Below the pieces are notes generated by a model. It saw only the letters and a program-made list of their open reading frames with translations. It did not search any database and was not told where the DNA came from. A program made the translations under genes and the position numbers. Below are positions 21,418 to 62,788 of a stretch of DNA of 64,000 nucleotides, in pieces (positions within the stretch are counted from its first letter, which is position 1; every line of letters begins with the position of its first letter). This DNA comes from Aigarchaeota archaeon (GTDB lineage: Archaea > Thermoproteota > Nitrososphaeria_A > Caldarchaeales > Wolframiiraptoraceae). The DNA lies in the NCBI GenBank assembly GCA_025059205.1, contig JANXDS010000001.1, forward strand, positions 361,582 to 425,581, written 5' to 3'.

Positions 21418-21522
21418 TTATGCCCCTTCAGCGGGGGCTTCTGGTGCCTTTTCTTCCGTGACAACCTTCTTTGCCTTTTTCTTCTTTTTTGCTTTTGTTT
21501 TCTTTGCCTTCTTCTTTGGCAT
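21418..21522 (-). CDS. Lys-rich 34-aa microprotein MPKKKAKKTKAKKKKKAKKVVTEEKAPEAPAEGA
   Basis: Manual translation of intergenic DNA; varied Lys codons; upstream GAAAAATTTTTATA BRE/TATA-like element. Confidence 0.65.
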   Translation of the reverse strand: MPKKKAKKTKAKKKKKAKKVVTEEKAPEAPAEGA

Positions 21523-22051: not shown

Positions 22052-23347
22052 TTGGCCAGAAGGTTACACGTCGCAGAGGTCTTCGAAGCTCCAGAGAACG
22101 AAGAGGTTGAGCTATTTGGCTGGGTTAGGAACAAAAGGGTGCATGGAGGGTTAGTTTTTCTGGAGCTTAGGGACTCCACAGGAACCATCCAAATAACTGT
22201 GAAGCGTGGACTTGTCGATGAAAAAAGCTTCGCGGAAGCCTCAGACGTTACAAGGGAGTCGTCGGTCACACTAACAGGCATTATAAAGAAGGACCCAAGG
22301 GCGCCAGGTGGAAGAGAAATCCAGTGTAGGTCGTTAAAGGTCATCGGTAAATCGATGGCCGAGTTTCCCATAAAGCCTGGTGCCAGCGTTAAGTTCCTGC
22401 TCGACAACAGGCATCTACACATTAGGAGCCCCAAGGTCGTCGCCATAACGAAGATACGCTCCTTGCTGACCGGCCTCCTCCATGAATGGTTTAGGAAGCA
22501 TGGGTTTACCGAAGTCCACTGTCCTACCTTCATAACGGCCGCCGTCGAGGGTGGCGCGACACTCTTTAAGGTGGATTACTTTGGTAGGAACGTTTACTTG
22601 ACCCAGAGTGTTCAATTCTACCAAGAGGCGGCGATATTCGGGTTAGAGAAGGTTTACACGATACAGCCTAGCTTCAGAGCAGAGCTCAGCAGGACTAGGA
22701 GGCATCTAACAGAGTTTTGGCACGTCGAGGCCGAGATGGCCAACGCGACGCTGGAAGACATGATGAGGGTTGTGGAAACGCTCGTTAGCGATACCGTCAA
22801 GGCGCTAGCGGAGTATTCCGAGCCTTACCTCAAGGTCCTAGGCAAGAATATAAACGCTTCAATCGCAGAACCTCCCTATCCTAGGATAAGGTATGCCGAG
22901 GCTTTGGAAATTCTAAGGAAGAAAGGTTTCAACATAGAATGGGGACAGGATTTCGGAGCCGACGAGGAAAGAGAGCTTTCCAAGGAATTCGATAAACCCT
23001 TTTTCGTTACCCATTATCCTAAAGAGGCAAAAGCTTTCTACCACATGCCGGACCCGTCAGACCCAAGGGTTACGCTCAGCGCTGACCTTCTGGCGCCAGG
23101 AGGTTACGGTGAGATAGTCGGCGGCGGTCAAAGGATTCATGATTACGAGCAGCTCGTCTCGAGAATCAAGGAGGCTGGCCTTAACCCCTCGGATTATGAA
23201 TGGTACTTGGATTTGAGGAGGTACGGCTCGATACCACATAGCGGCTTTGGTCTTGGCCTAGAAAGGATGCTTTGGTGGTTGCTTGGTATGGTACACATCA
23301 GGAGCGTTACGCTGTTCCCAAGAACGCCCACGAGGGTTTATCCATGA
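22052..23347 (+). CDS. asnS: Asparagine--tRNA ligase
   Basis: GWVRNKR, LRDSTG, EGGATLF, FRAELSRTRRHLTEFW, GEIVGGGQR, PHSGFGLGLER; start trimmed to in-frame TTG 22052. Confidence 0.9.
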   Translation: MARRLHVAEVFEAPENEEVELFGWVRNKRVHGGLVFLELRDSTGTIQITVKRGLVDEKSFAEASDVTRESSVTLTGIIKKDPRAPGGREIQCRSLKVIGKSMAEFPIKPGASVKFLLDNRHLHIRSPKVVAITKIRSLLTGLLHEWFRKHGFTEVHCPTFITAAVEGGATLFKVDYFGRNVYLTQSVQFYQEAAIFGLEKVYTIQPSFRAELSRTRRHLTEFWHVEAEMANATLEDMMRVVETLVSDTVKALAEYSEPYLKVLGKNINASIAEPPYPRIRYAEALEILRKKGFNIEWGQDFGADEERELSKEFDKPFFVTHYPKEAKAFYHMPDPSDPRVTLSADLLAPGGYGEIVGGGQRIHDYEQLVSRIKEAGLNPSDYEWYLDLRRYGSIPHSGFGLGLERMLWWLLGMVHIRSVTLFPRTPTRVYP

Positions 23348-23910
23348 ATGACGTATATCCGCCTTCAGAGGATACTTTCCTGCTGATAGATAGTATTAAC
23401 GATATGCCCTACGTCAGAAAAGCTTTGGAGGTGGGCTCCGGTAGCGGTGCGGTTTCCGTAGTATTGACTTATAAGGCCGATTATGTGGTGGCAACGGACA
23501 TTGATTTGAACTCTTGTTATGCTACGCTAGAGCGACTCCGCAAACACGACCGAAGGGCAAGCACTGACGTGGTTTGTTGCGACCTCCTCTCGGCCTTTAG
23601 GGGAGGTTCCGGCTTTGACCTTATCGTTTTTAATCCGCCATACCTTCCCGATGAGTGCTTAAAGGATGTTGCAGTATTCGGTGGTAATTCCGGCGTAGAA
23701 ACCTCAGTCGACTTCCTACACCAAGCCCATCATGTGCTTTCACAATCTGGTAGAATCCTATTAGTAACCTCGAGCGTTTCTGACCTGGGGAAGTTATGGA
23801 AGGCAGCCTCGGAGCTAAAACTCAACCACAGAACGCTCAGGTCCGTTAAGCTGTTCTTCGAGGAAATAAATGTGGTGGAGTTTAAGAAAAGCGTAAATAA
23901 AAAAAGTTAG
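23344..23910 (+). CDS. HemK2/PrmC-like methyltransferase
   Basis: VYPPSEDTFLL, EVGSGSG, FNPPY; ATG overlaps the asnS stop (ATGA). Confidence 0.88.
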   Translation: MNDVYPPSEDTFLLIDSINDMPYVRKALEVGSGSGAVSVVLTYKADYVVATDIDLNSCYATLERLRKHDRRASTDVVCCDLLSAFRGGSGFDLIVFNPPYLPDECLKDVAVFGGNSGVETSVDFLHQAHHVLSQSGRILLVTSSVSDLGKLWKAASELKLNHRTLRSVKLFFEEINVVEFKKSVNKKS

Positions 23911-23937: not shown

Positions 23938-24072
23938 TTAAAATTCTTCCTCCTCTTCAAACTCTTCCTCTTCAAATTCTTCCTCTTCCTCAAACTCTTC
24001 TTCAAACTCCTCCTCAAACTCTTCTTCGAATTCCTCTTCTTCCTCAACTGATAATATGCTTGGATATGTCAT
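23938..24072 (-). CDS. Acidic 44-aa Glu/Phe-repeat microprotein MTYPSILSVEEEEEFEEEFEEEFEEEFEEEEEFEEEEFEEEEEF
   Basis: Manual translation; GGTGG just upstream of the ATG; mixed GAA/GAG and TTT/TTC codons. Confidence 0.65.
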   Translation of the reverse strand: MTYPSILSVEEEEEFEEEFEEEFEEEFEEEEEFEEEEFEEEEEF

Positions 24073-24312
24073 ATTAACCACCGTTATTGAAAACTACGCC
24101 CACATCTTGTTTTTAAGGTTTGCGGACGTCCGTTGAGGCATAAAGGTCACATATATTTATTTCGTTCGATTTAACCATCTTAACGCTCAATTTTTTTACT
24201 CCATAAATTTCATAAAGATATAAAAATTTGCCGGTAGACGTTAAGGTTATCATGTTGAATAAGAAAGATAGATCCTCATCAATTTCCGTCATGCGGGTTA
24301 TGCATTAGGTGT

Positions 24313-25131
24313 TTGATAATGTTGTGGTATGAGGTTCTTACGCTAATAGCTCTTGGTTTCGGGATAGGCGGATTGGGAACAGTGATTGGGATAGGTGGTG
24401 GTGTGTACCTTGTCCCGACCCTCGTATTGCTATATGGCTTTGAACCCAAAATGGCAGCCGGGACGAGTTTGTTTTTCGTCTTTCTAAACGTTCTGTCCGG
24501 TAGCATCTCGTACCTTAGACTAAGGAGGGTTGATGTTAAGCTTGGGCTCATGTTCATGGTACCCACGATCCCGGGCGCCATTATTGGCGCATACTTCGTA
24601 GGTTATCTCGGTTCCTTCACATTCAGGCTCATCTTTGCAGCCCTTTTGGTTTGGGCATCGGTTTACCTTTTAATTAAACCTACAGGTCATTCTAGTAACG
24701 TTGATAAGACGAATAAGACAAAAGGATATGAAAGGAAGATCGTCGATTCTAACGGTAAGGTCTACGCGTATTCCGTCAACATACCATTAGGACTCGTGAC
24801 GGGCTTCGTCGCAGGCATGGCGTCCAGCATCTTCGGCATAGGCGGAGGTATATTGCACGTACCCATCATGATACACGTACTCGGTATACCCGTCCACGTC
24901 GCTACGGCTACATCGCATTTCATACTCATCTTTACGACGTTGTTCGGCTCCATCACCCATTCTACATTAAACAACATATCGTTCGGGCATGCCATTCTCT
25001 TGGGCTTAGGCGGTATACTGGGCGCTCAGGTAGGTGCGCGCGTATCCGGCCGTATAGGTGACGTGAAAATTAAGAGGCTATTGGGTCTTACACTTCTGAT
25101 TGTCGCTATAAGGCTGGTGCTACAGTTCTGA
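24313..25131 (+). CDS. TauE/SafE (TSUP) family transporter
   Basis: Duplicated GIGGG motifs, AAGTSL, ATATSH, multi-TM. Confidence 0.9.
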   Translation: MIMLWYEVLTLIALGFGIGGLGTVIGIGGGVYLVPTLVLLYGFEPKMAAGTSLFFVFLNVLSGSISYLRLRRVDVKLGLMFMVPTIPGAIIGAYFVGYLGSFTFRLIFAALLVWASVYLLIKPTGHSSNVDKTNKTKGYERKIVDSNGKVYAYSVNIPLGLVTGFVAGMASSIFGIGGGILHVPIMIHVLGIPVHVATATSHFILIFTTLFGSITHSTLNNISFGHAILLGLGGILGAQVGARVSGRIGDVKIKRLLGLTLLIVAIRLVLQF

Positions 25132-62473: not shown

Positions 62474-62788
62474 TTATCCAAAGAGCGCACTCAGACCAGC
62501 CAGCGCCTCTTCCTCTTCCTTCTTCCTCGCTTCCTCCTTCTTTTCCTCTTTCGGCTTTGCCTCCGGCTGAGCTGGTGTAGCAGGAGCTGCAGCCGTCGCT
62601 ACAAAGGGTGCCGCCGTGGCACTCTTTAAGACCTCATCTATATTTATTTCGGAGAGCGCTGCGACGAGAGCCTTTACTCTACTGTCGTCTGGTTGTATGC
62701 CCGCCGCAGACAAGACGTTCTTTATGCCTTCTTCGTTCACAGGCCTTCCTGCCTTATGTAGTAGGAGAGCAGCGTATATGTACTCCAT
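62474..62788 (-). CDS. rpl12: Ribosomal stalk protein P1/L12
   Basis: [11 protein letters not shown], Ala-rich hinge, [14 protein letters not shown]. Confidence 0.97.

Follow-up and report, generated by a model that had tools for sequence, protein, structure and literature searches.

Bacterial single-stranded DNA-binding protein (SSB; ...DDDIPF) and the gp2.5 and gp4 proteins of bacteriophage T7 carry acidic, Phe-terminated tails that occupy basic DNA-binding clefts, mimic single-stranded DNA and recruit partners. In tails of the SSB/gp2.5 type, the ring of the terminal Phe and its free carboxylate anchor in basic pockets, and in the ribosome the tail of the stalk binds ABCE1 and the translational GTPases. 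Here we describe a microprotein made almost wholly of Glu and Phe, encoded on the minus strand at positions 23938..24072 of a 64,000-nucleotide (nt) stretch of an Aigarchaeota archaeon (contig JANXDS010000001.1, hereafter ‘the window’, to which all coordinates without a locus or contig label refer). By analogy, the Glu/Phe microprotein would work most like an SSB-type acidic tail, DSS1/Sem1 or prothymosin-alpha, without being a member of any of these families. It shares with the SSB-type tail an acidic run closed by a C-terminal Phe with a free carboxylate (EEEEEF-stop), but it stands alone, has no OB fold and no IPF motif, and extends over 35 residues with 7 aromatics. The genome of origin (1.19 Mb, 45% GC, 35 contigs) belongs to the Wolframiiraptoraceae, a family of hot-spring Caldarchaeales (‘Aigarchaeota’) named in PMC9246946.

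The Glu/Phe reading frame and its conservation

The open reading frame (ORF) starts with ATG at 24072-24070 and stops with TAA at 23940-23938, and its 44-residue product is MTYPSILSVEEEEEFEEEFEEEFEEEFEEEEEFEEEEFEEEEEF. In agreement with an earlier note on this DNA, translation gives a nine-residue leader, MTYPSILSV, followed by 35 residues that are solely Glu (28) or Phe (7). The Phe residues occupy positions 15, 19, 23, 27, 33, 38 and 44, the last being the C-terminus, and the net charge is about -28. No other ORF in the whole genome has 8 or more acidic residues in its final 15 positions. The Glu and Phe codons are mixed (GAA 15, GAG 13, TTT 6, TTC 1), and Tandem Repeats Finder detected imperfect repeats only, with periods of 9, 12, 15, 18 and 24 and 61-95% matches. 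Since all these periods are multiples of three, the repeat is one of codons rather than a microsatellite, and the earlier claim of a repeat at protein level is borne out.

Intact orthologues were found at the same place in all six other species of Ca. Terraquivivens (Caldarchaeales), and intact forms were also found in another family; the conservation of the frame in relatives, on which the earlier note had made its proposal depend, is thus observed. The genus orthologues begin with M-[TVI]-Y-P-x-I-[LF]-S-[VI], continue with EEEEEFEEEFEEEF... and without exception close with Phe-stop (EEEEEF-stop in six of the seven members, EEEF-stop in the seventh). Over codons 10-25, which are the 16 Glu/Phe codons alignable without gaps, the seven species show 0, 0 and 14 variable sites at codon positions 1, 2 and 3, respectively; the corresponding numbers for the first 25 codons are 3, 2 and 20. 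Indels among relatives comprise whole codons in every case, and the leader motif M-x-Y-P-x-I-L, the start codon, the Shine-Dalgarno-like site, the TATA-like box and the terminal Phe-stop are kept across genera and families.

These patterns make it hardly credible that the element is a purine-rich stretch conserved without coding, or an ORF that arose by chance. Such an origin would fit the low complexity of the sequence, the fact that the gene finders represented in protein collections left it uncalled, and the lack of direct expression data for the source organism. However, a constraint on purine content would permit G/A exchange at codon positions 1 and 2, and none occurs within the genus; the conserved start, leader motif, terminal Phe-stop and upstream signals, along with the whole-codon indels, also speak against it. 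A microsatellite was rejected on account of the variation restricted to third positions and of the repeat periods. Other frames (Lys/Arg-rich in +1; Leu/Phe/Lys in antisense) were discarded as well, because the substitutions are synonymous in the Glu/Phe frame only, and those seen in the genus would give Lys/Arg replacements in the +1 frame. We consider it very likely that the ORF is a real translated gene; it is single-copy, protein-coding, under purifying selection and apparently served by a promoter of its own.

The GGTGG that the earlier note had placed before the ATG is present on the minus strand at 24078..24082, with a 5-nt spacer (6-10 nt upstream of the ATG), as a putative Shine-Dalgarno-like site. 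GGTGG or GGTGGG occurs in six of the seven genus orthologues, and GGTGA in the remaining one (L004). A putative promoter of the gene's own, the BRE/TATA-like box CGCAAACC-TTAAAAA (B recognition element and TATA box), lies at 24110..24124 on the same strand, -52 to -38 from the ATG, and the block CCGCAAACCTTAAAAA is nearly invariant among the genus orthologues. Family-wide, 44 of the 54 unique members have a TATA-like hexamer at -47 to -29, compared with 9 of 54 when a control window was scored, which indicates that the gene is its own transcription unit everywhere. An upstream in-frame GTG (24081) was rejected, since in relatives it falls out of frame or is cut off by a stop codon, so that the ATG is taken as the start. 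Downstream, a run of seven T (23899..23905, minus strand; 33-39 nt past the stop) may act as an archaeal oligo-T terminator and falls within the last codons of a convergent methyltransferase gene. A scan for promoters and terminators of the bacterial type, a type not applicable to archaea, found nothing. The convergent flank is formed by this methyltransferase (MTS/HemK-type, with an NPPY motif; 23272-23910, plus strand), which is preceded by the genes for AsnRS and a tRNA-binding-domain protein, and the divergent flank by a TauE permease (24313-25131, plus strand).

The gene has escaped the available catalogues. No match to the Glu/Phe microprotein was found by phmmer among 5.8 billion clusters, nor to a 23-member profile among 1.84 billion representatives, and Pfam and NCBIfam contain no model for the family at E<=10. 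An exact look-up of 20 family sequences in a 15-billion-protein collection found none present, which fits the unannotated status given in the earlier note. A full-text literature search for the peptide strings and related topics likewise gave no description. The failure of the sequence searches is probably due to the low complexity of these proteins and to their genes never having been called.

Distribution and gene neighbourhood

In the Caldarchaeales comparison, f1-f4 are family labels and g1-g12 genus labels. Exact-pattern matches in the named genome collection assigned the six closest genomes to Ca. Terraquivivens, next to Nitrososphaeria metagenome-assembled genomes, with a more distant match in Ca. 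Pelearchaeum. The internal motif EEEFEEEFEE, which leaves the terminus unconstrained, was found in 13 of 76 Caldarchaeales genomes with 0 control matches, each match being an ORF of 35-51 aa with a Phe end, and a search beside the methyltransferase gene in other genera recovered MRLEDLFLEVEDEEEEWEEFEEEEEEWEEEEEF. Across 401 Thermoproteota genomes, the EEEEF-stop pattern was present in 81, against 23 with the reversed control pattern. It occurs once per genome in 24 of 25 sampled f1 genomes and in 16 of 17 from f4, and both misses carry a gene with an EEEF or EEDF end. In f3 the version MEEEEGFEEEEFEEEEEFELEEPEEEEEEEW is otherwise Glu/Phe but ends in Trp, and members from f2/g9 have a GTG start and are nearly leaderless. 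Furthermore, single-copy members were detected beyond the Caldarchaeales, in Thermofilaceae (for example MKKTAWLEEEEEFPEEEEEWEEEEEEEWEEFEEEEEEFPEEEEEWEEEEEEEEEF), Acidilobales, Brockarchaeota, other hot-spring Nitrososphaeria and Desulfurococcales.

Leaders differ by genus (MxYPxILSV, MIWAEF, MELEDRIFK, MKxEFFARI and others), and the number and spacing of aromatic residues vary among family members. What the family has in common is runs of Glu, Phe/Trp placed singly at intervals, and an aromatic residue at the C-terminus, the last of these being true by construction for most of the distant members, namely those found by patterns of an E-run, F/W and a stop. All carriers found belong to hot-spring or hydrothermal lineages, and the EEEEF-stop scan of 401 genomes found none in the sampled mesophilic part of the phylum. 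We conclude that this is an undescribed family spread through the thermophilic Thermoproteota. As a working definition, members of the class have 30-60 aa, with the initiator Met followed by 0 to about 12 leader residues, Glu/Asp making up more than 60%, Phe/Trp spaced singly or in pairs, an aromatic residue at the very end, a TATA-like box of their own and one copy per genome; the Glu/Phe microprotein has all of these features.

In all Phe-type lineages examined, the gene that follows downstream is convergent and encodes a methyltransferase, AsnRS, or a RAM-domain protein followed by an amino-acid permease and Usp. Taken across lineages, the neighbours are a methyltransferase, AsnRS, TauE, a RAM-domain protein, a permease and MoeA. 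As a convergent gene leaves nothing for a leader peptide to regulate, a leader role in cis is unlikely, and a leader peptide or attenuator of the upstream-ORF kind was rejected since no co-directional gene lies immediately downstream in any Phe-type lineage. The same context bears on the idea of a cis-acting, hard-to-translate ORF, for which the act of translation would itself be the function, through intrinsic ribosome destabilisation. In bacteria and eukaryotes, ribosomes are destabilised by nascent chains with poly-Glu near their start; a nine-residue leader followed by 35 acidic/aromatic codons is the most destabilising configuration, and related ORFs are situated in front of ABCE1 in some lineages. 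We nevertheless regard this as very improbable, given the missing co-directional downstream gene and the fact that a sensor of aborted translation would not keep its last residue and stop codon; on this view, amino-acid identity would be under selection along the whole frame, up to an end that is never reached.

Another possible explanation is that the peptide is a ligand of the translation apparatus, a mimic of the aP1 tail or of eIF3j-like acidic motifs that would bind ABCE1 or GTPases and tune recycling or termination. In Terraquivivens the locus lies among translation genes (tRNA-binding protein, AsnRS, HemK/Mtq2-type methyltransferase), with ABCE1 located 5.9 kb downstream on the same strand in 7/7 species, and in Thermofilaceae CysRS is found upstream of the gene. 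A scan for EEEEEW-stop also revealed that, in 17 of 34 unique cases, a micro-ORF with a Trp end is no more than 900 nt from ABCE1. Most of these are Desulfurococcales ORFs of the form M-x-EEEWWEEEEEEEWWEEEEEWEEEEW or single-Trp forms from Bathyarchaeia, and a few end in Phe. In contrast, ABCE1 is in the locus of none of the 52 unique Phe-ending members. In other Caldarchaeales genera it lies on a different contig or at a distance of hundreds of kb, and in 12 genomes of this order the 3.4 kb upstream of ABCE1 contain no acidic ORF. Thermofilaceae, Acidilobales and Brockarchaeota each carry a single Phe-type gene, distant from ABCE1, and lack a Trp-type paralogue. Linkage to ABCE1 in Caldarchaeales was rejected, save for the genus-specific 5.9 kb spacing.

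Comparison with the stalk leads in the same direction. The stalk tail resembles the microprotein in having an acidic stretch and then hydrophobic/aromatic residues near the C-terminus, and the Trp-type relatives beside ABCE1 add to this likeness. However, the ...LAGLSALFG motif (archaeal consensus ...LxGLxxLFG) is absent from the microprotein, which ends in ...EEEEEF with no Leu/Gly motif, whereas the genome's own aP1 (about 62474-62788, minus strand) has it in a canonical tail. Phe is the last residue here and the penultimate one in the stalk; the nine-residue leader varies between genera, and there is no N-terminal dimerisation domain for anchoring to aP0. The resemblance to the stalk tail suggested in the earlier note does not amount to family membership, and a role as a translation ligand appears fairly unlikely.

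The Glu/Trp microproteins beside ABCE1 share with the Phe type a short leader, Glu runs, spaced aromatics, an aromatic end, one copy per genome, an occurrence in Thermoproteota and the lack of annotation, and F and W ends interchange both within Caldarchaeales and within the ABCE1-adjacent type. The Phe type is longer, has single rather than double aromatics and never adjoins ABCE1. Judged from their sequences, both would fit one class of hyper-acidic, aromatic-ended microproteins, common descent being unprovable at such low complexity. In Desulfurococcales and Bathyarchaeia, 220-850 nt separate the Glu/Trp micro-ORFs (e.g. MFEEEWWEEEEEEEWWEEEEEEWEEEEW) from ABCE1 (L270, L271, L284, L292, L295, L304, L318, L321-L324, L327, L329, L341, L344 and L354). 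Phe-ending variants of them were seen in L286 and L361, with ABCE1 in the locus of L286 only.

ABCE1 itself is unusual in length in this genus. In the window its open frame spans 15227-18007 (minus strand), and across Terraquivivens the frame measures 922-927 aa in six species and 785 aa in the seventh, compared with about 600 aa in other Caldarchaeales genera. A further neighbour is a 240-aa protein with a weak match to Mrr_cat/Hjc/NERD-type nuclease folds, which is encoded directly upstream of the micro-ORF in Wolframiiraptor, Benthortus and Geocrenenecus, about 60-230 nt away on the same strand (L095-L111). As a partner, in the sense of a nuclease with a DNA-mimic inhibitor, this Mrr_cat/Hjc-like gene was set aside, its homologue being 240 kb away in the present genome (C11:141462-142193).

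A proposed free-standing acidic tail and its candidate clients

The reading that we prefer, and which we consider plausible though far from secure, is that the Glu/Phe peptide acts as a free acidic tail that would bind Lys-rich surfaces of the kind found on nucleic-acid-binding proteins. It is modelled on the tails described above, and three observations speak for it: a Lys/Ala-rich microprotein is encoded 2-5 kb away on the same strand in two families, analogous acidic and Lys-rich ORFs adjoin each other in Bathyarchaeia, and EEEEF/EEEEW ends recur on archaeal SSB and TATA-binding proteins. The peptide would act in trans, as the convergent gene context suggests, and behave as a nucleic-acid-like polyanion. 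Its Glu runs would exert long-range electrostatic attraction toward Lys/Arg-rich surfaces, the spaced Phe/Trp would serve as stickers, and the C-terminal aromatic ring with its free carboxylate would provide a specific anchor. Very basic nucleic-acid-binding proteins would be the clients, the first candidate being a Lys/Ala-rich microprotein encoded nearby, which the acidic peptide may neutralise, chaperone or displace from nucleic acid. Disorder, nucleic-acid mimicry and a chaperone role, as envisaged in the earlier note, may apply as well.

Another role would be that of a non-specific polyanion, a buffer of cations or polyamines or a heat protectant resembling the ‘Hero proteins’, with no defined partner. 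The extreme charge, the single-copy gene with its own promoter, and the restriction of all carriers found to hot-spring and hydrothermal lineages, with none among the sampled mesophiles, are consistent with it. Bulk charge, however, needs neither an invariant aromatic end nor spaced Phe/Trp and would accept Asp, whereas codon positions 1 and 2 of the 16 Glu/Phe codons are invariant within the genus. Specific binding, rather than bulk charge, is favoured by the invariant residue identity, the spaced aromatics and the obligatory aromatic end, and we regard a purely electrostatic function as distinctly unlikely.

Similar ends recur on larger proteins. An Acidilobales SSB (Ssb-like_OB, L127) has the C-terminus ...GGGEEEEF. 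EEEEF or EEEEEW ends were also observed on crenarchaeal and Thermococcus TATA-binding proteins (TBPs; L123, L272), on a BFN-domain nuclease-type protein (L132), on a similar protein encoded in L146 and on a thermosome (L066). Compared at the level of these termini, the occurrence suggests a recurrent C-terminal recognition module on nucleic-acid-binding proteins and a chaperonin of related archaea.

Among stand-alone adaptors, DSS1/Sem1 is the closest in general appearance: fewer than 90 aa, very acidic, studded with aromatics, and presumed to be a disordered adaptor on basic grooves that can mimic DNA. The Thermofilaceae member LEEEEEFPEEEEEW is reminiscent of the DSS1 motif LEEDDEFEEFPAEDW. 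Unlike DSS1, the Glu/Phe protein lacks a C-terminal helix region, is composed of E and F only after its leader and has an obligatory terminal aromatic. None of 10 family members matched PF05160 at E<=10, and hmmscan against Pfam at the same threshold found nothing for the window protein and seven other stand-alone members, although low-complexity filtering may hide weak similarity. DSS1/Sem1 uses two acidic/aromatic sites to bind PCI-domain proteins, BRCA2 or RPA; PCI-domain partners are not known in these archaea, and no partner was identified from the gene neighbourhoods examined. The interpretation offered by the earlier note therefore stands in part: an acidic, aromatic-punctuated, protein-level feature under purifying selection is there, and the syntenic Lys-rich microprotein and the Trp-ending relatives beside ABCE1 in other lineages agree with its ideas, while membership of the DSS1/Sem1 or stalk families is not upheld.

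Small carrier proteins offer a further comparison. LysW/ArgW are likewise small, with an acidic, Trp-containing tail that docks on basic enzyme surfaces, and the microprotein could by that logic be a carrier or substrate peptide, its tail serving an ATP-grasp or other modifying enzyme (as in LysW/LysX, RimK or tubulin-tyrosine ligase), or a precursor of a ribosomally synthesised and post-translationally modified peptide. Thermococci, Korarchaeota and Chloroflexota indeed have zinc ribbons of the LysW type to which like tails are fused, and an Anaerolineae locus encodes one such protein ahead of a KamA-like radical-SAM enzyme (SAM, S-adenosylmethionine) and an ATP-grasp ligase. The microprotein, however, has no Cys or zinc ribbon, no terminal Glu (EDWGE) as attachment site and no LysX/Z/Y/J/K neighbours; its last residue is Phe/Trp where LysW-type carriers use Glu. 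Moreover, genes for ATP-grasp, radical-SAM and peptidase proteins are not conserved neighbours in any archaeal lineage examined, and we consider a carrier function highly unlikely.

The Thermococci zinc-ribbon protein of L190 (3008-3175) matches the Pfam model Zn_ribbon_LysW at 29.2 bits, over threshold. Together with zinc-ribbon proteins of Korarchaeota (L135 2651-2965, L220 1282-1512 and L229), it has an acidic/aromatic tail with an EEEEEEF end where LysW has EDWGE. In the Anaerolineae locus (L267 2286-4999), the LysW-like zinc ribbon has the tail ...EEEEEWEEEWGEEEEEEEEW and is followed by the KamA-like radical-SAM aminomutase and the ATP-grasp ligase, which looks like a carrier-protein system.

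For the free acidic tail, the candidate client closest at hand is an unannotated Lys/Ala-rich microprotein of 34 aa, MPKKKAKKTKAKKKKKAKKVVTEEKAPEAPAEGA, encoded at 21418..21522 on the same strand, 2.4 kb from the Glu/Phe gene. It is the sole such ORF in the genome, is kept throughout the genus (7/7 species) and, like the Glu/Phe protein, is without a match in Pfam. Its order-wide form is M[PA]KKK[AT]AKK...KKAKK...PAPxxE, a K/A-rich head followed by a P/A/E-rich tail (MPKKKAKK...EAPEAPAEGA in the window). The same-strand distance between both genes is 2-2.5 kb in g1, g2 and g4, about 5 kb in g5 and 4.5 kb in g8 and g12, so that the arrangement spans two families although the intervening genes differ. 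The two genes bracket a block on the opposite strand whose content differs between lineages (tRNA_bind, AsnRS and the methyltransferase, then permease, RAM and Usp). It should be noted that the detectors of the Lys-rich and Glu/Phe ORFs are both limited by their patterns.

From synteny and charge we infer a functional link between the two microproteins. In its more specific form, the acidic peptide would make up with the Lys/Ala-rich one a polyelectrolyte pair like prothymosin-alpha and histone H1, and, anchored by its C-terminal aromatic residue, would set the free amount of the basic peptide, and of other basic nucleic-acid binders (possibly on the ribosome or ABCE1), available for binding RNA or DNA. 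Prothymosin-alpha is likewise a very acidic small protein, and the candidate MPKKKAKK... microprotein would take the place of the Lys/Ala-rich basic partner; prothymosin-alpha differs, however, in having neither aromatics nor a special C-terminus, and the archaeal pairing is drawn from synteny and charge only. We regard this specific pairing as unlikely.

In several Bathyarchaeia, a poly-Glu...W ORF is followed within a few nt by a Lys-rich ORF of the MPKKKGKKKGKGKKEK type (MPKKKGKKK-type). These acidic and Lys/Gly-rich ORFs are abutting or separated by a few nt in L263 (2286-2430), L316 (1756-2028), L357 (1325-1544) and L365 (596-736), and a fifth pair (L280 2269-2727) has a gap of about 290 nt. 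They look like an acid/base microprotein pair, and the genes around them are heterogeneous.

Several observations weigh against the free-tail reading and its candidate client. The two genes are unlinked in f2/g9, where the synteny is broken, and elsewhere the Lys-rich ORF stands at the far end of a conserved opposite-strand block, so that the synteny may be inherited rather than functional. The aromatic end is unbiased only for the genus, the synteny matches and the internal-motif matches. Because of the low complexity, homology within the wider family lacks statistical proof, and convergence is possible as judged from these sequences. AlphaFold2 predicted a single helix for residues 9-43 with a predicted local distance difference test (pLDDT) score of 86, in which Phe15, 19, 23 and 27 would form a stripe. 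This model neither supports nor refutes a disordered polyanion, and we give it little weight, since poly-Glu helices are a known over-prediction of structure prediction and the Phe spacing varies between genera.

The expression data are mixed. The window's own gene was found as RNA in no public run, and there is no protein evidence for it either; three hot-spring metatranscriptomes searched as raw reads contained neither the source organism nor a g9 relative. The f2/g9 orthologue ORF is present in 17 hot-spring metatranscriptome assemblies. With the contigs placed on the closest reference, one run gave a discrete contig of 294 nt at a depth of 1335 that spans this ORF, with coverage gaps on both sides, and two further runs cover the ORF with contigs of 323 and 2081 nt. 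These contigs are unstranded and may include DNA, and the support they lend to transcription of the homologue is weak.

What the gene adds to thermophilic archaea

With 28 Glu and 7 Phe among 35 residues, the product is near the limit of what natural polypeptides show in composition, and its being kept unchanged at the amino-acid level implies that it does something specific. The finding adds a new, well-supported gene to several major lineages of thermophilic archaea, including cultured species of Thermofilum, Acidilobus and Caldisphaera, and the gene for the Lys/Ala-rich microprotein is probably a second one. Both have escaped gene callers, Pfam, NCBIfam and protein catalogues of billions of sequences, and genes of this kind need composition-aware searches, rather than profile searches, to be seen. 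If the Glu/Phe peptide is a free-standing version of the tails found on SSB, TBP and the stalk, it would be a minimal probe, amenable to synthesis, for the basic surfaces that such tails address in archaea, and a candidate archaeal counterpart of the acidic adaptors of eukaryotes, such as DSS1 and prothymosin-alpha. If it forms a polyelectrolyte pair with the Lys/Ala-rich microprotein, two uncalled genes would constitute a widespread and so far unseen regulatory layer in the archaea of the TACK group (Thaumarchaeota, Aigarchaeota, Crenarchaeota and Korarchaeota).

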